Shown: positions 28,927 to 39,752 of the stretch, piece after piece | Numbering within the stretch: the first letter of the stretch is position 1 | How the letters are laid out: each line of letters starts with the position of its first letter | DNA from: Thermocatellispora tengchongensis | Lineage (GTDB): Bacteria > Actinomycetota > Actinomycetes > Streptosporangiales > Streptosporangiaceae | Direction: 5' to 3' | DNA: 64,000 nucleotides | NCBI RefSeq assembly: GCF_014202315.1 | Contig: NZ_JACHGN010000001.1 | Coordinates: 21,757 to 85,756 of the forward strand | Notes under the pieces: generated by a model | Databases searched by the model: none | Told to the model about the DNA's origin: nothing | What the model saw: only the letters and a program-made list of their open reading frames with translations | Program-made: the position numbers and the translations under genes

Positions 28927-29529
28927 TCAATCGCCGATCGACTCGGTGAGCGCCCGGAGGGCCAGATCCCACGGGTAGGTCCGGCCCCGCTCGGCCTCCT
29001 CGCCCGGTCCGGGAGGCTCGAAGCGGCCGGGGCCGAGCAGCACCGGCACGCCCTCGGCACGCAGGGCGGCCACGCTGCGCCGGAACGGCTCGCGGGAGGC
29101 CAGGGCGGCGCTGACGAACGGCAGGATCACCACGGGAATGCCCAGCCCGGGAGCCTCGGCCAGCAACCCCAGCGCGTACGTGTCGGCGATGCCCTGGGCC
29201 ATCTTGTTGATCGTGTTGTAGGTGGCCGGGGCCACGATGATGGCATCGGGCCGCGGCGGCTTGGGCTCGCTGGGCTTGCGGTACCGGCTGCGCACGGGAC
29301 GGCCGGTCTGCTTCTCCAGCGCCGCGACGTCGATGAAGTCCACGGCGTTGGGGGTGGCCACGATCTGCACCGTCCACCCCTCGTCCTGGGCCGGGCCGAC
29401 GAGACGACCGACATCCCCGGCGGGCCCGGCCGCGCACACGATGACGTACAGGACCTTGCCGGTGTGTCTGGTCACGCGGCCCAGGATGCCACGGCCGAGC
29501 CACGTCACCGCCGGGGGCCGGGCGCTCAT
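28927..29529 (-). CDS. flavoprotein (PPC decarboxylase/HFCD-like family)
   Basis: VLYVIVCAAGPAGD...ATPNA...VAPATYNTINKMAQGIAD is the flavin-binding signature of HFCD-family flavoproteins. Confidence 0.8.
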   Translation of the reverse strand: MSARPPAVTWLGRGILGRVTRHTGKVLYVIVCAAGPAGDVGRLVGPAQDEGWTVQIVATPNAVDFIDVAALEKQTGRPVRSRYRKPSEPKPPRPDAIIVAPATYNTINKMAQGIADTYALGLLAEAPGLGIPVVILPFVSAALASREPFRRSVAALRAEGVPVLLGPGRFEPPGPGEEAERGRTYPWDLALRALTESIGD

Positions 29530-29783
29530 TCGGCGGGCGGGTGGCAGGTCGTGCCGGGCGGGGGCAGGCGCAGGGTGGTGAGGTAGCCAGCGAAGCCCAT
29601 GCCGTCCAGGCAGCGCATCCAGGTGCTGGTCCGCACCGGCCGGGCCGCGAACTCAGGCCCGCGCCCTTTTCCCTATCGCCATTTCGGAGATTTGAATCGC
29701 CTTCCGCCCGAACCTCGCGACAGGCAATGCGATCCATCCCATTTACGCCGTCCCTTTCGCGTTGAGGACCTGAGGGACTTTCG

Positions 29784-30039
29784 TCAGCCGACCGTGCGGA
29801 GCGGGTCGAGCCGGACGGTGAGCCGCACGTGGAGGGCCTGGGCGACGCGTTCCGGCATCGGGATCGTCGGCAGGGCGCGCCGGATTCGAGCCGCGCCACC
29901 GCCGGTTGCCGGAGGCCCGAGCGTTCGGCCGACCGTGCCTGGGTCAGGCGAGCTCCTCGCGTCACCGGTGCACCGCCTCGGCCAGGTCGAACCGGAAATC
30001 GGCGGCGTCGTGGGCGGCACCCGCGCTGCGACGGCTCAT
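29784..30039 (-). pseudogene. degraded XRE-family HTH gene (two apparent frameshifts)
   Basis: Three consecutive reading frames give MSRRSAGAAHDAADFRFDLAEAVHR, then RGARLTQARSAERSGLRQPAVARLESGA, then LPTIPMPERVAQALHVRLTVRLDPLRTVG*. Joined, these reconstitute a canonical XRE HTH (GLTQeeLAer.GvsqstisrlErG...P.....L..la.aLgv.ldeL). Confidence 0.4.
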
Positions 30040-30355
30040 GATCTCGGCGCGCCTGCCCGGCCACACCCTGCGCTCACCCCCGGTCACGGTCAGGGATGGC
30101 ACGAACGGGATAGGGCGCACAGGTCGGCGGCCGACCGTGTGCGGCCACCGGGTCGCGTCCGGCCGGCCGGGGGAGCGGCTTCGGGCTGGGGGTGGCCGAT
30201 GGCTTTAACGGGGCGTATAGCGGAAAAGTTCCGTGAATGTCATCACTCTTGCGGGCGTTGTATATCCGTCTATAGGTGGATATATTCCTCGCACTACCAA
30301 AGGGCGTCTCGGGGGACAGAGCAGCCCGTAGGGTAGCGGGGAGGACATACTGTTC

Positions 30356-30955
30356 ATGGGGGACTTTCTCGGCGTCGCGCTGGGGTTTCCCACCGTGCTT
30401 TTCAGCTTTCTGCTGCTGGTCGTCGTCGGGTTCTGGGTGGCCGTGCTGCTCGGCGGGGCCGATCTCGACCTGCTGGACTCCGACGGGGGCGTGGGGCCGG
30501 CCGCGGGGCTCGGGCTGGGCGGGGTGCCCGCCACGGTGGCGGTCTCGTTGCTGGTCGCGTTCGGGTGGTTCATCAGCCTGGCGGGGGCGGCGCTGCTGGA
30601 GGGGACGGCGGCGCGGGCAGGGGTGCTCGTGGTGGCCCTCGGGGGCGCGTGGGGGCTGGCCCGGCTGGCCGTGCTGCCGCTGCGACGGGTGTTCGAAGAG
30701 GAGGCGGCGCCCTCGCGGGCGGACTTCGTCGGGCGCATGTGCGTGGTCAGGACGGGGTCGGTGACGGCGGACTTCGGGCAGGCCGAGGTGACCGCCGAAG
30801 ACGGGGCCACCGCGCTGGTCCAGGTGCGGCTGCTGGGCGAAGAGAGACTGACGGCCGGTGACACGGCCCTGATCTACGAGTACGACGCGGACGGCGAGTT
30901 CTTCTGGGTCATGCCGTACGACGCCGCGCTTGACCCAGACAAAGTCATCAAATAG
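30356..30955 (+). CDS. NfeD-like membrane protein (OB-fold C-terminal domain)
   Basis: N-terminal TM helices plus a C-terminal beta-barrel segment (GRMCVVRTGSVTADFGQAEVTAEDGATALVQVRLLGEE). NfeD proteins are the canonical operon partners of SPFH/flotillin proteins. Confidence 0.8.
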   Translation: MGDFLGVALGFPTVLFSFLLLVVVGFWVAVLLGGADLDLLDSDGGVGPAAGLGLGGVPATVAVSLLVAFGWFISLAGAALLEGTAARAGVLVVALGGAWGLARLAVLPLRRVFEEEAAPSRADFVGRMCVVRTGSVTADFGQAEVTAEDGATALVQVRLLGEERLTAGDTALIYEYDADGEFFWVMPYDAALDPDKVIK

Positions 30956-30968
30956 GGGACAGAAGCAT

Positions 30969-33032
30969 ATGGACGTGATCTCCACGGGGTTCGGGATTCT
31001 GCTCGCCGTCGTCCTTCTCGTCGTCATCGGGCTGCTCATCGTGGTCAGCCGGCTGTTCCGCAAGGTCGAGCAGGGCAAGGCGCTGATCGTCTCGAAGGTC
31101 AACAAGGTGGACGTCACCTTCACCGGCAAGATCGTGCTCCCGGTGATCCACAAGGCCGAGGTCATGGACATCTCGGTGAAGACCATCGAGATCGAGCGGA
31201 CCGGCCATGAAGGGCTGATCTGCCGCGACAACATCCGGGCCGACATCCGGATCACCTTCTTCGTCCGCGTCAACAAGACGGTCGAGGACGTGATCAAGGT
31301 GGCGCAGGCCATCGGCACGGCCCGGGCCAGTGACCAGGAGACCCTTCAGGAGCTGTTCAACGCCAAGTTCTCCGAGGCGCTGAAGACCGTCGGCAAGCAG
31401 CTCGACTTCGTCGATCTCTACACCAAGCGCGACGAGTTCCGCGACCAGATCATCCGGGTGATCGGCACCGACCTCAACGGCTACAGCCTGGAGGACGCGG
31501 CGATCGACTTCCTGGAGCAGACCCCGATGTCGCAGCTCGACCCGGCGAACATCCTCGACGCCCAGGGCATCCGGAAGATCACCGAGCTGACGGCGTCCGA
31601 GAACGTGCGCACCAACGAGTACCGGCGGCAGGAGGAGAAGGAGATCACGCGCCAGAACGTGGACGCGCGTGAGGCGATCCTGGAGCTGGAGCGGCGGCAG
31701 GCCGACGCGGAGATCAAGCAGAAGCGCGAGATCGAGACCATGAAGGCCCGCGAGGAGGCCGAGATCGCCCGGGTGCAGGCGGAGGAGCGGCTGAAGGCGC
31801 AGACGGCCGCGATCCGCACCGACGAGCAGATCGGCATCCAGCACGAGAACCGGGCCCGGGAGATCGCGGTCGCGGAGAAGAACCGCGAGCGGGTGATCGC
31901 GATCGAGACCGAGCGGATCGAGAAGGACCGCATGCTGGAGGTCATCGCCAGGGAGCGGGAGACCGAGCTGTCCAGGATCGCCAAGGACAAGGAGGTCGAG
32001 GGCGAGAAGCGGTCGATCGCCGAGGTGGTCCGGGAGCGGATCGCGGTGGAGAAGACCGTGGCCGAGCAGGAGGAGAACATCAAGCGGCTGCGCGTGGTCG
32101 AGGAGGCCGAGCGCACCCGCCAGGCCGTGGTCATCCAGGCCGAGGCCGAGGCGCAGGAGAACCTGGTCAAGGACATCAAGGCGGCCGAGGCCGCCGAGGC
32201 GGCGGCCAAGCACCGGGCGCGCGAGGAACTGGTGCTCGCCGAGGCGCGGCAGCAGGCCGCGGAGCTGGACGCCCGCGCCAAGATCAGGCTCGCGGAGGGC
32301 TTGCAGGCCGAGGCGGCGGCGGCGGGCCTGGCCGAGGTCCAGGTGCGCGAGCGGAACGCGGCGGCGATCGAGCGCGTGGGCCGCGCCGAGGCCGCCGTGG
32401 AGCGGGAGAAGGCGGTGGCGGCGGCCGACGCCGTGCGCGAGAAGCTGAAGGCCGAGGCCGAGGGCCTGGGCGAGAAGCTGAAGGCCGAGGCCGAGGGCCT
32501 GGCCGAGAAGGCGACCGCGATGGCCGCGCTGGACGAGGCCACGCGCCACCACGAGGAGTACCGCCTGCGCCTGGAGGCCGAGAAGGAGATCAGGCTGGCC
32601 GACATCAACGTGCGCCGCGAGGTCGCCGAGGCGCAGGCCACCGTGCTGGCCACGGGCCTGGAGAAGGCCAACATCGACATCGTGGGCGGCGACAACGTCT
32701 TCTTCGACCGGCTGGTCAACTCGATCACGGCCGGCAAGAGCGTGGACGGGTTCGTGCAGCACTCGGACGTCGCCGGCGCGCTGGCGGAGCCGTACCTGAA
32801 CGGGAGCGCGAGCCTGTCCGCGGACCTGGCGCGGGTGCTCGGCGCGGTGGACACGGCCGGCGTGCGCGACCTCACCCTGTCCGCGCTGCTGCTGAAGCTG
32901 ATCAAGGCGGGCGGCCCGGACGAGGACCGCATGCGGCAGCTCCTTGAGACCGCGCAGCACCTCGGCGTGGCCGAGACGCCGGTCGCCGCCCTGTCCGCCG
33001 CCGCCCCCGCCGTGCCCGCTTCGGTCAGGTGA
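30969..33032 (+). CDS. flotillin-family SPFH/band-7 protein (YqiK/FloT-like)
   Basis: ATG at 30969 lies 14 bp after the NfeD stop. An N-terminal TM helix is followed by an SPFH domain and ~400 aa of EA-rich coiled coil with AEAEG repeats. Confidence 0.9.
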   Translation: MDVISTGFGILLAVVLLVVIGLLIVVSRLFRKVEQGKALIVSKVNKVDVTFTGKIVLPVIHKAEVMDISVKTIEIERTGHEGLICRDNIRADIRITFFVRVNKTVEDVIKVAQAIGTARASDQETLQELFNAKFSEALKTVGKQLDFVDLYTKRDEFRDQIIRVIGTDLNGYSLEDAAIDFLEQTPMSQLDPANILDAQGIRKITELTASENVRTNEYRRQEEKEITRQNVDAREAILELERRQADAEIKQKREIETMKAREEAEIARVQAEERLKAQTAAIRTDEQIGIQHENRAREIAVAEKNRERVIAIETERIEKDRMLEVIARERETELSRIAKDKEVEGEKRSIAEVVRERIAVEKTVAEQEENIKRLRVVEEAERTRQAVVIQAEAEAQENLVKDIKAAEAAEAAAKHRAREELVLAEARQQAAELDARAKIRLAEGLQAEAAAAGLAEVQVRERNAAAIERVGRAEAAVEREKAVAAADAVREKLKAEAEGLGEKLKAEAEGLAEKATAMAALDEATRHHEEYRLRLEAEKEIRLADINVRREVAEAQATVLATGLEKANIDIVGGDNVFFDRLVNSITAGKSVDGFVQHSDVAGALAEPYLNGSASLSADLARVLGAVDTAGVRDLTLSALLLKLIKAGGPDEDRMRQLLETAQHLGVAETPVAALSAAAPAVPASVR

Positions 33033-36000
33033 CGGTGACGGAGCTGGACGCCGGAACGTACGAGGTCCTGCGGGCGCGGCTCGCCGAGCAGTCGGCCGAG
33101 CTGGCCCGCCGGGCCGAGGCGCTGAACGCGCGCAGGATCGAGACGTTCGGGGGCGCCGAGCTGCGGCTCGTCGGCACCGAGCGCATCCGCACCGGCAACA
33201 ACTGCGTCCCCCGCGACATCGTCTCGGTGGGCGGGCTGATGCTGTTCGGCTACAACGTGTTCATCGGGCTGCGGCCCGAGACGACGGTCGGCGACGTGTT
33301 CTCGCTGCACGCCTTCACCCGCGACGGCGAGGCGTTCCGGTTCGAGGACGTGGCCGAGGACGGGCTGCCGGGCCTGCTGGACGACCCGGGGTTCCGCAAG
33401 GACTTCGCCGAGCTGTACCGGTACTACCGCGACACCCGGCTGATGCAGTTGCGGCGGCTGGACAGCACCCTGCTCGCGGTGTTCCAGACCGCCCCGCCCG
33501 AGCAGGCGGGGCCGCAGGACATCCGGGTGCTGCGGTGGCGGGTCAACGCGGACGGCGCGGTGTCGTACCTGGACAACCGGGGCGAACGCGACCACGTGTT
33601 CCCGCCCGCGCACGACTTCGAGTGGACCGAGACCACCCGCGACGATCACGTCCTGGGACGGCACCCGCACATCTCGATCCAGGGCGAGGTGTTCGTCGAG
33701 ACGATCGGCGGCGACCTCACCATCAAGATCGAGGACAACACGGAGACCGGGCAGGGGATCTACCGCGAGCCGGTGGCGGAGCCGCTGCAAAGCCTCGCCG
33801 ACGCCGACGTGCACTACGCCCGGATCGGGCCGCTGATCCTGCTGCGGGTGCGCCCGTACAAGGAGACCGAGTGGCGGCACCTGGTGTTCAACACCAGGAC
33901 CACGACCGTCACCCGGCTCGACGGGATCGGCCGGGCGTGCCTGCGGCTGCCGGAGGACCAGGGGATCATCTTCCCGGGCGGCTACTACCTGGCCACCGGC
34001 GTCACCAAGACCTTCGACACCGACGTGGCCGGCCTGGAGTTCGAGCGGGTGATCCGCTCGGCCAACGGCGAGGACGTCATGTACGTCTTCCACGCCCGCG
34101 CCGAGGGACGCTCGCTGCTGCTGCCGTACAACGTGATCCGCAAGCAGGTCACCACGCCGATCCCGTGCCACGGGTACTCGCTGTTCGACGACGGCACGTT
34201 GGTGGTGTTCCGGGCGGAGTCGGACGAGCCGTCACGGGTGCACCCGATGCAGGTGTGGCAGACCCCGTTCCAGTCCGACCTGTACGCCGCCGCCCAGCCC
34301 GCCGGCACGGGCCCGCTGGAGCGGATCGGCAACGCCGAGCTGGTGCGGGGGATCTCCGACTGCCTGTCGATCGCCCGGATGACCGAGGAGATGGAGCCCT
34401 CGGCTCCGGTCTACGAGGGCCTGATCGCCGCCTGCGTACGGGCGTTCGACGCCTACCACTGGCTGGGCGAGCACGACCTGCGCGCCCCGCTCGCCGAGGT
34501 GCGGGCGACGGCCGAGCAGGTGCTGGAGGAGTTCGAGAAGGTCCAGGCCCTGACCGCGCAGGCGACCGCGGCCGTGGACGAGGCCGCCGCCGAGATCGGC
34601 GCGCTGATGCGGCACACGCGCGGCGACGCCCCGCGTACGGCGGACGCCTGGGTGGCCGCGCTGGCCGGGCTGCGCCGCGCCCAGGGGCGGCTGGTCACGC
34701 TGCGCGAGATGCGTTACGCCGACCTCGCCCGCATCGACGCGCTCGCCGCCGAACTGGAGTCGGAGGCGGCCGAGGCGGGCCGGCGCGCGGTGGAGTTCCT
34801 GCGCGGCCCCGACGCGTTCACCGGCTACCACGCCGAGGTGGACGGCCTGCTCGCCGAGGCGGAGCGCATCGGCGCCGCCGCCGAGGCCGAGCCCGTACGA
34901 CAGCGGCTGGCCGCGCAGGTCGAGGGCCTGGAGGTGGTGACCGAGGTCGTCGGCACGCTGGAGATCGCCGACGCCACCGTACGGACGGGCATCCTGGAGC
35001 GGGTCGGCGAGGTGCTGGCCGGGCTGAACCGGGCCAGGGCCACGCTGGAGGCCCGCCGCGCCGAGCTGCTGGCGGCCGAGGGCCGGGCCGGGTTCGCGGC
35101 GGAGTTCGCGCTGGTCGGGCAGGCCGTCAGCGGCGCGCTGGCCATGGCCGACACCCCGGAGCGGTGCGACGAGCAGCTCGGCAGGCTGCTGCTGCAGATC
35201 GAGGGCCTGGAGTCCCGCTACGGCGAGTTCGAGGAGTTCCTGACCGAGCTGACCGCCAAGCGCGAGGACGTCTACGAGGCGTTCTCCTCGCGCAAGCAGG
35301 CGCTGCTCGACGAGCGCGCCCGCCGCGCGGGCCGCCTGGCGGAGTCGGCGGAGCGCATCCTCGGCGCGGTCGAGCGGCGCGTGGCGACGTTCGCCTCCCT
35401 GGAGGAGATCAACACCTACTTCGCCGCCGACCCGATGGTGGCCAAACTGCGCTCGGTGGCCGCCGACCTGCGCGAGCTGGGCGACCAGGTGCGGGCCGAG
35501 GAGCTGGAGGGCCGGGTCAAGGCGGCCAGGCAGGAGGCCGGGCGGGCGCTGCGCGACCGGCTCGACCTGTACGCCGAGGGCGGCGAGACGATCCGGCTCG
35601 GCCGGCACCGGTTCGCGGTCAACACCCAGCCGATCGATCTGACGCTGGTCCCGCACGGCGACGGCATGGCGTACGCGGTGACCGGCACCGACTTCCGGGC
35701 CCCGGTCACCGACCCGGACTTCGCCGCGACCCGCCCGTTCTGGAACCAGCTCGTGGTGTCGGAGTCGGAGGAGGTCTACCGCGGCGAGCACCTGGCCGCC
35801 GCGATCCTGGCCGAGGGCCCGCCGGAGGCGCTGCACGAGGCGGCCGTGACCGACGGCGGGCTGCTCGCCCTGGTGCGCGAGCGCGCCGCGGCCCGCTACG
35901 ACGAGGGTTACGAGCGCGGCGTGCACGACCACGACGCCGCCGCGATCCTGGACGCGCTGCTGCGCCTGCACGCGGGCGCGGGCCTGCTGCGATACCCGCC

Positions 36001-37903
36001 CGCCGACCGGGCCGCCGCCCAGCTCTTCTGGGCCTTCGGCGCCGGCCCCGGCGCGCGTGCGTCGTGGGCCACCCGGGCGGCCTCGCTCGCCCGCGCCAGG
36101 GCCGCCTTCGGCCCCTCCCCCGCGATCGAGGACCTGCACCGGGAGCTGGCCCAGGCGATCGGCGCGTTCACCGCGCCGCTGGAGCTGGACGCCCCGCTGG
36201 CGGGCGAGTACCTGTTCGAGGAGCTGGCCGCGGCCCCGGAGGGCTTCGTCACCGGGGCCGGGGCGCGCTCGCTGGTGGAACGGTTCCGGGCGGCGCTGGG
36301 CGCGGCGCGTACCGAGGAGTTCGACAAGGACCTGCGCGCGCTCGGCGACGACCTCGCCACCCGGCACCAGCTCGCCCGCGCCTGGCTCGGCTCGTTCGAG
36401 CCCGGGTCGGCGGAGCTGGAGGAGGCCGCGGCGATCCTGCTGTGCGGCCCCGAGCCGCCCCGGTACGACTCCTCGGCCGCGCTGACGGCCACGGTCGAGG
36501 GCCTGCTCGGCGCGCACCCGCAGATCGCGGAGCGGCGGCTGGAGATCCGGCTGGACGAGTTCCTGGCCAGGACGCGCCGGTTCCGCACGGAGCGGGCGCC
36601 GGCGTACCGGGAGTACCACCGGCGGCGTACGGCGCTGGTCGCGGCGGAGCGGGAGCGGCTGCGGCTGGAGGAGTACCGGCCGAAGGTGATGAGCGCCTTC
36701 GTGCGCAACCGCCTGCTCGACGAGGTGTACCTGCCGCTGATCGGCGACAACCTGGCCAAGCAGCTCGGCGCGGCCGGCGACGCCAAGCGCACCGACCAGA
36801 TGGGCCTGCTGCTGCTCATCTCGCCGCCCGGCTACGGCAAGACGACCCTGATGGAGTACGTCGCGAGCCGGCTCGGCCTGGTGTTCGTCAAGGTCAACGG
36901 CCCCGCGCTGGGCCACGGGGTGACGTCGGTGGACCCAGCCGAGGCGCCGAACGCGACCGCGCGCCAGGAGGTCGAGAAGATCGACTTCGCCCTGGAGATG
37001 GGCAACAACGTCCTGCTCTACCTGGACGACATCCAGCACACCTCGCCCGAGCTGCTGCAGAAGTTCATCTCGCTGTGCGACGCCCAGCGCCGTATGGAGG
37101 GCGTGTGGCGGGGCCGCACCCGCACCTACGACCTGCGCGGCAAGCGGTTCGCGGTGTGCATGGCCGGCAACCCGTACACCGAGGCCGGGCAGCGGTTCCG
37201 GGTGCCCGACATGCTGGCCAACCGCGCCGACGTGTGGAACCTGGGCGACGTGCTGTCGGGCCGGGACGAGCTGTTCGCGCTCAGCTACATCGAGAACGCG
37301 CTCACCTCCAACCCGGTGCTCGCCCCGCTCTCCACCCGCGACCGCGCCGACGTGGAGCTCCTGGTACGCCTGGCGCGCGGCGACGCCGGCGTACGACCGG
37401 ACCGGCTGTCCCACCCGTACTCCTCGGTGGAACTGGACCAGATCCTCTCGGTGCTGCGCAAGCTGCTGAAGGTGCAGCAGGTGGTGCTGGCCAACAACCA
37501 GGCGTACATCGCCAGCGCCGCCCAGTCGGACGCCACCCGCCCCGAGCCCCGCTTCCAGCTCCAGGGCTCCTATCGCAACATGAACAAGCTCGCCGAGCGC
37601 ATCGTCCCGGTGATGAACGACGCCGAGCTGGAGGCGCTGATCGACGATCACTACCTGGGCGAGGCCCAGACCCTCACCACCGGCGCCGAGGCCAACCTGC
37701 TCAAACTCGCCGAGCTGCGCGGCCGGCTCACCCCCGAGCAGGCGGATCGCTGGGCCGAGATCAAGGCCGCCCACCTGCGCACCCAGTCGCTCGGCGGCCC
37801 CGAGGACGACCCCACCACCCGCACCGTCGCCGCCCTGGCGGTCCTGGCCGACCGTGCCGCCGCCATCGAATCCGCCATCACCCGGGCCACCTCCGCCTCC
37901 TAG
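33029..37903 (+). CDS. giant (1624 aa) flotillin-associated protein with C-terminal dynein-type AAA+ (AAA_5/MoxR-like) ATPase domain
   Basis: GTG start overlaps the flotillin stop (GTGA). Walker A motif LLLISPPGYGKTTL, Walker B motif VLLYLDDIQH, and an AAA_5-like FAVCMAGNPYTEAGQRFRVPDMLANR segment. The ~1200-aa N-terminal region (globular plus long Ala/Arg/Glu-rich helical part) has no recognised family. Confidence 0.85.
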   Translation: MTVTELDAGTYEVLRARLAEQSAELARRAEALNARRIETFGGAELRLVGTERIRTGNNCVPRDIVSVGGLMLFGYNVFIGLRPETTVGDVFSLHAFTRDGEAFRFEDVAEDGLPGLLDDPGFRKDFAELYRYYRDTRLMQLRRLDSTLLAVFQTAPPEQAGPQDIRVLRWRVNADGAVSYLDNRGERDHVFPPAHDFEWTETTRDDHVLGRHPHISIQGEVFVETIGGDLTIKIEDNTETGQGIYREPVAEPLQSLADADVHYARIGPLILLRVRPYKETEWRHLVFNTRTTTVTRLDGIGRACLRLPEDQGIIFPGGYYLATGVTKTFDTDVAGLEFERVIRSANGEDVMYVFHARAEGRSLLLPYNVIRKQVTTPIPCHGYSLFDDGTLVVFRAESDEPSRVHPMQVWQTPFQSDLYAAAQPAGTGPLERIGNAELVRGISDCLSIARMTEEMEPSAPVYEGLIAACVRAFDAYHWLGEHDLRAPLAEVRATAEQVLEEFEKVQALTAQATAAVDEAAAEIGALMRHTRGDAPRTADAWVAALAGLRRAQGRLVTLREMRYADLARIDALAAELESEAAEAGRRAVEFLRGPDAFTGYHAEVDGLLAEAERIGAAAEAEPVRQRLAAQVEGLEVVTEVVGTLEIADATVRTGILERVGEVLAGLNRARATLEARRAELLAAEGRAGFAAEFALVGQAVSGALAMADTPERCDEQLGRLLLQIEGLESRYGEFEEFLTELTAKREDVYEAFSSRKQALLDERARRAGRLAESAERILGAVERRVATFASLEEINTYFAADPMVAKLRSVAADLRELGDQVRAEELEGRVKAARQEAGRALRDRLDLYAEGGETIRLGRHRFAVNTQPIDLTLVPHGDGMAYAVTGTDFRAPVTDPDFAATRPFWNQLVVSESEEVYRGEHLAAAILAEGPPEALHEAAVTDGGLLALVRERAAARYDEGYERGVHDHDAAAILDALLRLHAGAGLLRYPPADRAAAQLFWAFGAGPGARASWATRAASLARARAAFGPSPAIEDLHRELAQAIGAFTAPLELDAPLAGEYLFEELAAAPEGFVTGAGARSLVERFRAALGAARTEEFDKDLRALGDDLATRHQLARAWLGSFEPGSAELEEAAAILLCGPEPPRYDSSAALTATVEGLLGAHPQIAERRLEIRLDEFLARTRRFRTERAPAYREYHRRRTALVAAERERLRLEEYRPKVMSAFVRNRLLDEVYLPLIGDNLAKQLGAAGDAKRTDQMGLLLLISPPGYGKTTLMEYVASRLGLVFVKVNGPALGHGVTSVDPAEAPNATARQEVEKIDFALEMGNNVLLYLDDIQHTSPELLQKFISLCDAQRRMEGVWRGRTRTYDLRGKRFAVCMAGNPYTEAGQRFRVPDMLANRADVWNLGDVLSGRDELFALSYIENALTSNPVLAPLSTRDRADVELLVRLARGDAGVRPDRLSHPYSSVELDQILSVLRKLLKVQQVVLANNQAYIASAAQSDATRPEPRFQLQGSYRNMNKLAERIVPVMNDAELEALIDDHYLGEAQTLTTGAEANLLKLAELRGRLTPEQADRWAEIKAAHLRTQSLGGPEDDPTTRTVAALAVLADRAAAIESAITRATSAS

Positions 37904-38053
37904 CGGCCCGTTCTGGCCAGGGCGGTGAGCCGCACGCCGCCGTCCTGGCGAAAGGGATGGAAGGGCCGCCTTCGGATTCCGTCCCGCACAGGCAGCGCCA
38001 CGCGGACCCGCACGACCACCGCTTGACCCTGGCACATCACGCTAACTACGTTA

Positions 38054-38069
38054 TTCCGTAATTTCGGAA
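38054..38069. promoter_or_regulatory. inverted repeat TTCCG-N6-CGGAA immediately upstream of the RBS of the ArsR-like gene
   Basis: Read directly from the sequence (ttccgtaatttcggaa). It sits in a short AT-rich leader just before the GGAGG RBS and the ATG at 38083. Confidence 0.35.
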
Positions 38070-38082
38070 CTACGGAGGCTTG

Positions 38083-38631
38083 ATGAACGAGGAACGATTA
38101 GCGGAACTTGAGCGCCGGGTGGCCCGCCTGGAGGCCGCGCTGACGGGCGCCGGGCAGGACCGGCGGCCTCCCGAGGCGTCGCCGTCATCACTGGACCTGC
38201 TCCGGCGCTTCGAGGCGGCGGCCGAGGAGGAGACGGGCGAGAGCGCCGGCACCATCGCGTACGTCGGGGCCGCGCTGCTCGACGGCGACCGGCACCTGTG
38301 GGCGAGTGAGCACCGCGTGGCCGACCTGATGGCGGCCGACTGGGGGCCCGCCGCCGCGCTGCTGGAGGCCATGGGCAGCCCGGCGCGGCTGGCCCTGCTC
38401 GCGGCGCTGGTGCGGGGGCCGCGGACCCGGGCGTACCTGCAGGAGGCCCTGGGCGGGGAGACCACGAGCGGCCACCTCTACCACCACCTGCGGGAGTTGC
38501 AGCGTACGGGGCTGATCGCGCAGCGGCGGCGCGGGGAGTACCAGGTCGTCTCCCGCGCGGTGGTCCCGATCCTGGCCGCCCTGGCCGCCGCCCTCGACCT
38601 CGGCGTCGCCCCCACGGCCCAGGAGGAGTAG
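38083..38631 (+). CDS. ArsR-family winged-helix transcriptional regulator with N-terminal coiled-coil
   Basis: C-terminal ARLALLAALVRGPRTRAYLQEALG...SGHLYHHLRELQRTGLI is an ArsR/SmtB-type wHTH. Confidence 0.75.
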   Translation: MNEERLAELERRVARLEAALTGAGQDRRPPEASPSSLDLLRRFEAAAEEETGESAGTIAYVGAALLDGDRHLWASEHRVADLMAADWGPAAALLEAMGSPARLALLAALVRGPRTRAYLQEALGGETTSGHLYHHLRELQRTGLIAQRRRGEYQVVSRAVVPILAALAAALDLGVAPTAQEE

Positions 38632-38636
38632 ATCCC

Positions 38637-39752
38637 ATGCGCACGCACCCCGCGTGGGCCGCGTGGGCCCGCGGCGACATCGACGAGGCCGCCCGCCTGG
38701 CGGCCGAGCACGGCCACGACCGGGTGCTCGTGCTCACCGACCTCGTACGCGGCCGGTACGAGCCCGCCCTGGCCCGCTACGCCGCCAAGCCCCGGCGCGA
38801 CCTGGCCGAGCCGATCGCGCACGCCCTGCTGCACCTCCGCCGCACCGATGAGGCGCACGACCTGGCCCGCCGCCTGCTCGGCGACCGCCGCACACCGCCC
38901 GATCTGGCGCTCCGCCGCGCCCGCCCCCTGACCGTGGCGGCGTCCGGCACGGTCACACTGCCCTTCTGCGACCACCCACTGGCCCCCTACCTCCCCGCCG
39001 TCGCCGGACAGATCGAGGGCCGGCGCACGCCGATCCACCTGGACACCGGCGGCACGTTCCTGGTCATGGGCCTGGAGCGGGCGGAATCGCTGGGCATCGC
39101 CTCGGTCCCCAACGGCCGGCACGCCCACGGCGTCACGCGTACGCCCGCCCGCTTCGGCATCGCCCGCGAACTCGTGCTCGGCGACGTCAGGCTGACGAAC
39201 GTGCCGGTGGACATCCTGCCCACCTTCACCGGTGTCCAGGACCTGGTGATCATGGGCACCAACCTGCTGCAATGCTTCCTGGCCACGATCGACCACCCGG
39301 CGAGCCGCCTGATCCTCGCCCCGCGCGGCACCCCGCCCCCGCCCGGCCTCCGCATCCCGTTCTACCTATGGGGCGATCACTACATGTTCGCCCGCGGCGG
39401 CTACGGCGAACGCCGCGACCTCACCTTCTTCATCGACTCCGGGCTGGTCATGGTGCACCAGGCCGACGACGGGCCACCGCGGCAGGCGTGCGCGTACGCG
39501 ACCCGGCGCCAGTACCGGGTGGCGTGGGGCATCCCGCGCCACCGCGCCGCGACCGCGTTCCACGAGGCCGAACACCCCGTCAGGCTCGGCCCCCTGGAAC
39601 AGCCCGGCCACCTCCTGGCCACCACCCCCACCCGCCGGACCCCCTGGTCCTCCTTCGGCGGCGTGCGCATCCACGGCCTGCTCTCCCACGCCTTCCTGAG
39701 CCGTTACGCCTGGACGCTGGATTTCGACCGGCACGAGTACACCTTCGGCTGA
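38637..39752 (+). CDS. retropepsin-like (clan AA) aspartic protease domain protein
   Basis: The PIHLDTGGTFLVMG motif (D-T/S-G) is the catalytic signature of retroviral-type aspartyl proteases. The C-terminal ~200 aa have no recognised family. Confidence 0.7.
   Translation: MRTHPAWAAWARGDIDEAARLAAEHGHDRVLVLTDLVRGRYEPALARYAAKPRRDLAEPIAHALLHLRRTDEAHDLARRLLGDRRTPPDLALRRARPLTVAASGTVTLPFCDHPLAPYLPAVAGQIEGRRTPIHLDTGGTFLVMGLERAESLGIASVPNGRHAHGVTRTPARFGIARELVLGDVRLTNVPVDILPTFTGVQDLVIMGTNLLQCFLATIDHPASRLILAPRGTPPPPGLRIPFYLWGDHYMFARGGYGERRDLTFFIDSGLVMVHQADDGPPRQACAYATRRQYRVAWGIPRHRAATAFHEAEHPVRLGPLEQPGHLLATTPTRRTPWSSFGGVRIHGLLSHAFLSRYAWTLDFDRHEYTFG

Follow-up and report, generated by a model that had tools for sequence, protein, structure and literature searches.

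A conserved YqiJ–flotillin–giant AAA+ ATPase operon in Thermocatellispora tengchongensis: a putative ATP-driven remodelling module for membrane scaffolds

Pairs of small NfeD2 membrane proteins and SPFH2 flotillins were surveyed by Hinderhofer et al. (2009, PMC2636767), and an ATPase partner was mentioned for neither E. coli yqiJ–yqiK nor B. subtilis yuaF–floT. An operon type that joins such proteins to a large ATPase was later described by Ravi et al. (mSystems 2024, PMC11237479), its abbreviated three-gene form included. According to that work, which was confined to comparative genomics, the abbreviated trio is widely distributed; chaperone-like, ATP-dependent sub-membrane dynamics were proposed with no further mechanism, and no Pfam family was named for the ATPase. 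The operon type is therefore already known and not new. No experimental study of any member of the trio was found in the searched literature.

We analysed a window of 64,000 nucleotides (the whole stretch of DNA under study) from Thermocatellispora tengchongensis, in which three same-strand genes at 30356–37903 (+) encode a YqiJ-like protein, a YqiK-type flotillin and a giant ATPase. The features at the level of genes and upstream DNA are as follows.

30261–30284, no strand assigned: candidate operator/promoter palindrome of 24 nt, with arms TATATCCGTCTA and TAGGTGGATATA (inverted-repeat scan)
30356–30955, + strand: gene 1 (ORF and translation), 199 aa; YqiJ/YuaF (DUF1449, 'NfeD2') type; three hydrophobic segments, then features including an acidic loop and, at the C-terminus, a beta-rich (OB-like) domain
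30930–33032, + strand: ORF of gene 2 (ORF and translation), with a likely start at ATG 30969
30969–33032, + strand: 687-aa YqiK-type flotillin with an N-terminal membrane segment, SPFH/Band_7, a Glu/Ala-rich helical stretch and a variable C-terminal tail
~31062–31493, + strand: SPFH/Band_7 domain of the flotillin, aa ~32–175 (Pfam)
33029–37903, + strand: gene 3 (ORF), giant protein of 1,624 aa, NCBI name 'DNA repair ATPase'

Third-position GC content was 0.91, 0.97 and 0.97 for genes 1, 2 and 3, respectively, in a genome of 73% GC, a bias typical of real genes here; the coordinates first given for the three ORFs are correct. The flotillin ATG at 30969 lies 13 nt past the gene-1 stop, with GGGGA just 5′ of it. 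At the next junction, GTGA at 33029–33032 does place the flotillin stop over a GTG start of the giant gene, as had been read from the sequence. Starting instead from another in-frame GTG, at 33035, yields a 1,622-aa protein with 100% identity to the NCBI-annotated product (P0001), so we regard the overlap start as plausible but not proven. The translational coupling proposed on the strength of this overlap was overstated: a 4-nt overlap occurred in ~15 of 86 loci, confined to certain actinomycete lineages. Upstream, the palindrome (83% complementary, no spacer) lies in an AT-rich island 72–95 nt 5′ of gene 1 and is weakly suggestive of an operator or promoter element. A consensus scan over 29500–38700 found neither a sigma-70-like promoter nor an intrinsic terminator.

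The hydrophobic segments of the gene-1 product span aa 1–40, 49–83 and 88–109. Its family profile matched E. coli YqiJ at an hhalign probability of 82% (E = 1e-5), and the Hymenobacter counterpart carries a DUF1449 annotation. The traits of the NfeD2 class were all found: a small multi-TM protein with a predicted OB-like C-terminus, encoded directly 5′ of an SPFH2 flotillin. On these grounds gene 1 is a divergent protein of the YqiJ/YuaF (NfeD2) type. A profile search of PDB sequences with gene 1 returned nothing. Assignment to classic NfeD (NfeD1) was rejected because Pfam gave no hit, to the NfeD domain model or any other, for gene 1 or four counterpart proteins, except YqiJ_N in one of them (E = 0.17). 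Of the 'classic NfeD–flotillin pair' first suggested, the flotillin was thus retained, as a YqiK-type protein, and the NfeD was not.

In the flotillin, Pfam Band_7 (E = 2.8e-11) emerged only when the N-terminal 244 aa were scanned alone, while the C-terminal 443 aa, searched against Pfam, gave no significant family and no match to a flotillin C-terminal model. The protein has a single hydrophobic segment (aa 1–34) and aligns with E. coli YqiK at 30% identity across 463 aa of the SPFH and helical regions (E = 3e-40). Identity reaches 43–49% with most giant-linked flotillins of other phyla, against 26% with YqiK of E. coli, a flotillin that lacks a giant ATPase partner; among the genome loci it ranges from 52 to 83%. 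Judged by these identities, the giant-linked flotillins form a conserved subfamily of their own.

The giant protein had been taken to belong to no characterised family. In fact, aa 24–477 match Pfam PF12458 (DUF3686) over profile positions 1–448 of 448 (E = 4e-223; 741 bits, cut-off 25), aa 595–679 match PF25472 (DUF7902), more than 5,800 homologues were found, and the operon is the one described by Ravi et al. (2024). Between actinomycete orders, identity is 60–77% over 1,600 aa. The protein contains no hydrophobic segment (compared with three in gene 1 and one in the flotillin), so it is predicted to be soluble. Its features, from Pfam, AlphaFold models, motif positions and conservation, are listed below.

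33098–34459, + strand: N-terminal helix (aa 10–40) and all-beta domain (aa ~46–411), DUF3686, beta-propeller-like (AlphaFold model, Pfam)
34274–35563, + strand: helical-bundle region, aa ~416–845, Ala/Arg/Glu-rich (helices at 435–842 in the AlphaFold model)
34811–35065, + strand: DUF7902, aa 595–679 (Pfam)
35636–36598, + strand: compact conserved domain, aa ~870–1190, a small beta element (871–892) followed by helices (pLDDT >90 over aa ~880–1190)
36701–37378, + strand: AAA+ ATPase module, aa ~1225–1450 (Pfam AAA_5, AAA, AAA_22 and RuvB_N; model pLDDT 86)
36824–36847, + strand: Walker A PPGYGKTT, aa 1266–1273 (motif position)
37013–37033, + strand: Walker B LLYLDDI, aa 1329–1335, with an invariant Asp-Asp (motif position)
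37100–37135, + strand: beta-hairpin ahead of sensor 1, aa 1358–1369 (model)
37148–37183, + strand: sensor-1 strand FAVCMAGNPYTE, aa 1374–1385 (motif position)
37211–37231, + strand: candidate arginine finger in MLANRAD (motif position)
37379–37900, + strand: C-terminal helical domain (lid and extension), aa ~1451–1624 (model secondary structure, conservation)
37562–37588, + strand: QGSYRNMNK block, invariant across homologues

The layout proposed at the outset, ~450 globular residues, ~700 helical residues and an AAA part, fits the AlphaFold models, except that aa ~870–1190, which follow a low-confidence linker (aa 841–866), are compact and helical and not a coiled coil. The residues that are invariant among 28 distant homologues in and around this domain include G858, E912, R918, G964, H966 and D969. 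A Foldseek search with the N-domain model returned beta-propellers (E ~1e-4), including those of the prolyl-oligopeptidase type, a remote resemblance on which the predicted propeller fold rests.

Near relatives also bear the NCBI name 'DNA repair ATPase'. Taken literally, the database name 'ATPase involved in DNA repair' would make the giant protein a DNA-repair or DNA-translocating ATPase with an incidental link to flotillin, and RuvB and MCM are indeed among the best sequence or structure matches of the P-loop region. However, the RuvB matches span only the ~45-residue P-loop region, and score 20–21 bits where the family cut-offs are close to 290 bits, and the Foldseek scores of RuvB, NorQ, Lon, ClpX and MCM are alike. 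A Pfam scan of the giant protein found neither a DNA-binding nor a peptidase domain; DNA-repair genes are not conserved in the module's neighbourhood in the genome and metagenome loci, where the invariable neighbours encode two membrane proteins; and no paper backing the name was found in the searched literature. We consider a repair function highly improbable, and the NCBI name gains no support here.

The predicted nucleotide-binding motifs of the giant protein are intact and invariant: Walker A, Walker B and sensor 1 lie where they had been placed by the original prediction and, together with the candidate arginine finger, are retained in homologues down to ~31% identity. The label 'dynein-type/MoxR-like' fared less well, as the AAA_5 match at aa 1261–1384 is weak (26.3 bits, cut-off 22) and ties with the generic AAA family PF00004 (26.5 bits), while a Foldseek search with the AAA+ model ranked RuvB, MCM, NorQ, Lon and ClpX equally (E ~1e-6). 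In the secondary structure of the model, a hairpin precedes sensor 1, and no hairpin or insert is evident within helix 2. Walker B carries an invariant Asp-Asp and not the usual Asp-Glu, so that the protein might act as a slow switch and not as a motor. No aromatic residue occurs in the loop (LGHGVTSVDPAEAPNATAR) that occupies the position of pore loop 1, which speaks against a classical threading unfoldase.

Conserved synteny with SPFH/NfeD-type genes, on which the original prediction had staked itself, was observed almost throughout. Flotillin lies directly 5′ of the giant gene at 77 of 77 genome loci having upstream DNA, at 64 of 67 diverse metagenome loci (the other three have no adjacent flotillin) and at all nine loci inspected singly. 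The latter belong to Amycolatopsis, Simiduia, Psychrobacter, Pseudomonas fluorescens pQBR103, Deinococcus, Hymenobacter, Proteus, Vibrio and one unassigned metagenome contig, covering Actinomycetota (Amycolatopsis), Pseudomonadota (Gammaproteobacteria), Deinococcota and Bacteroidota. Gene-1 counterparts were found 5′ of flotillin in ~60 of 80 genome loci and 54 of 60 metagenome loci; the same-strand order YqiJ, flotillin, ATPase holds in the window and in the nine singly inspected loci, and the remaining flanking genes vary from locus to locus. Gene order thus supports treating the trio as one functional unit that has been conserved, and shows it to have been co-inherited or co-transferred between phyla.

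Further neighbours recur outside Actinomycetota. PspA_IM30 lies directly 5′ of the trio in 15 of 52 divergent loci and DUF2170, which is CesT/Tir-like, in 8 of 52; on the 3′ side, PLD and TelA are each found in 7 of 74 loci. LemA/TPM genes recur as neighbours too. In Hymenobacter the order is Tir chaperone, PspA, DUF1449, flotillin and ATPase. The recurrence of PspA/IM30, DUF2170, PLD and TelA points to envelope stress, and these genes, with LemA/TPM, lend support to the membrane-stress role suggested earlier. With non-actinobacterial queries, tblastn detected no homologues of PspA, DUF2170/CesT-Tir, PLD, TelA, LemA or TPM within ±8 kb, either in the window or at the actinomycete loci. Having no PspA or CesT/Tir-type gene near its trio, the window represents the abbreviated form, and for the window and the actinomycete loci the envelope-stress link is an extrapolation.

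Defence had also been put forward, and a membrane scaffold with an ATPase might sense or answer infection in an anti-phage or abortive-infection system. In favour of this, the trio is patchily distributed across phyla and is carried by large plasmids (pQBR103, and others in Deinococcus and Hymenobacter), suggesting horizontal transfer; in some Proteobacteria a PLD-family (HKD) gene lies directly 3′ of the giant gene, with a spacing of 1 nt in Vibrio campbellii; and it was through phage stress that PspA was originally defined. Nevertheless, PADLOC-DB v2 gave only marginal, P-loop-level matches for the ATPase (mad8, E = 8e-4; IetA, E = 3e-3) and none for genes 1 and 2, and searches of 50,697 phage records and of IMG/VR returned no homologue. 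Conservation of the giant protein at 60–77%, and of the flotillin at up to 83%, is very high for defence genes, and the flanks of the inspected loci hold ordinary metabolism and regulation genes and no defence islands. A role in defence is improbable on this evidence.

We consider it moderately probable that the locus is an abbreviated envelope-associated module, in which the giant protein would use ATP to assemble or remodel a membrane complex of flotillin and YqiJ. Ravi et al. (2024) had independently arrived at this operon definition and at chaperone-like, ATP-dependent dynamics, in line with such a role. On the cytoplasmic side of the membrane, flotillin would form an SPFH cage, and YqiJ would sit in the patch of membrane that the cage encloses; we infer such a cage because SPFH and SPFH–NfeD cages have been solved in published structures. 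The giant protein would oligomerise, probably into a ring, by way of its AAA+ module; the model of this module is confident and matches ring-forming AAA+ motors in Foldseek. Its long helical arms would reach the cage or its contents, the propeller-like N-domain would bind them, and ATP would drive assembly, opening, disassembly or other remodelling of the flotillin–YqiJ complex during membrane stress. Where PspA polymers are present, these would also be remodelled by the giant ATPase.

The same synteny could instead reflect client quality control, in which the cage would confine damaged or unassembled membrane proteins and the giant AAA+ protein would extract them, hold them or pass them to proteases, much like a protease-less FtsH within HflK/C or m-AAA protease within prohibitin. 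Pairs of SPFH cages with AAA+ proteases have been published and S. aureus FloA stabilises unfolded proteins; at one flotillin-less locus (L097), genes for an M48 (HtpX-like) peptidase and AIM24 lie directly 5′ of the giant gene; and the propeller-like N-domain could gate substrates, as compared with the prolyl-oligopeptidase-type propellers found by Foldseek. At the same time, the giant protein has no protease domain, no protease gene is conserved near the module in the genome and metagenome loci, and both the pore loop lacking an aromatic residue and the Asp-Asp Walker B argue against processive unfolding. We regard quality control as unlikely.

A stronger version of the remodelling explanation, which we hold tentatively and judge somewhat unlikely, is that the giant protein is the first dedicated ATP-driven assembly or disassembly machine for a flotillin/SPFH cage: a ~1-MDa ring whose propeller-tipped helical arms would take hold of the cage, or of the OB domains of YqiJ within it, and open or recycle it upon membrane damage. 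If true, this would be a bacterial counterpart of Vps4/ESCRT-III for SPFH scaffolds, and flotillins in bacteria would thereby gain a defined cycle that depends on energy.

The closest functional analogies for remodelling would be Vps4 on ESCRT-III/PspA-type polymers and FtsH inside HflK/C cages, the giant protein being a member of neither family. HflK/C–FtsH, like QmcA/YbbK–FtsH and the prohibitin–m-AAA protease, pairs an SPFH scaffold functionally with an AAA+ machine. FtsH, however, is membrane-anchored with an M41 protease domain, whereas the giant protein is predicted to be soluble and combines a propeller and a helical-bundle N-region with no protease domain. The HflK/C cage is on the periplasmic side; YqiK-type flotillins are cytoplasmic. 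An HflK/C–FtsH-type complex was rejected, as the giant protein has neither a hydrophobic segment nor a peptidase domain. With Vps4/CdvC on ESCRT-III/Snf7/PspA polymers, the locus shares an AAA+ ATPase genetically linked to a membrane-remodelling scaffold, and outside Actinomycetota the trio often has PspA, of the ESCRT-III superfamily, as a neighbour. The giant protein differs from Vps4 in having no MIT domain, a ~4-fold larger size and a hairpin before sensor 1, and its AAA+ module is closer to RuvB, Lon, ClpX, NorQ and MCM than to the classical clade. The MoxR/NorQ/dynein-type (AAA_5) proteins are matched weakly, at 26.3 bits, with NorQ among the top structural matches, but no VWA-domain partner was found and the model has no evident helix-2 insert. 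E. coli yqiJ–yqiK and B. subtilis yuaF–floT share a small membrane protein with an OB-like C-terminus encoded directly 5′ of an SPFH flotillin; the E. coli pair differs in that the giant ATPase gene is absent and YqiK is 26–30% identical to the window flotillin. Compared with the operon of Ravi et al., whose full form has an adjacent CesT/Tir–PspA dyad and was recovered independently in Hymenobacter and Simiduia (a PLD-containing form in Vibrio), the window lacks CesT/Tir, PspA and PLD genes within ±8 kb of its trio. It does have the same three architectures in the same order: a 3TM YqiJ/YuaF-type protein, a band-7/flotillin protein and a coiled-coil AAA+ ATPase with a (remotely matched) propeller.

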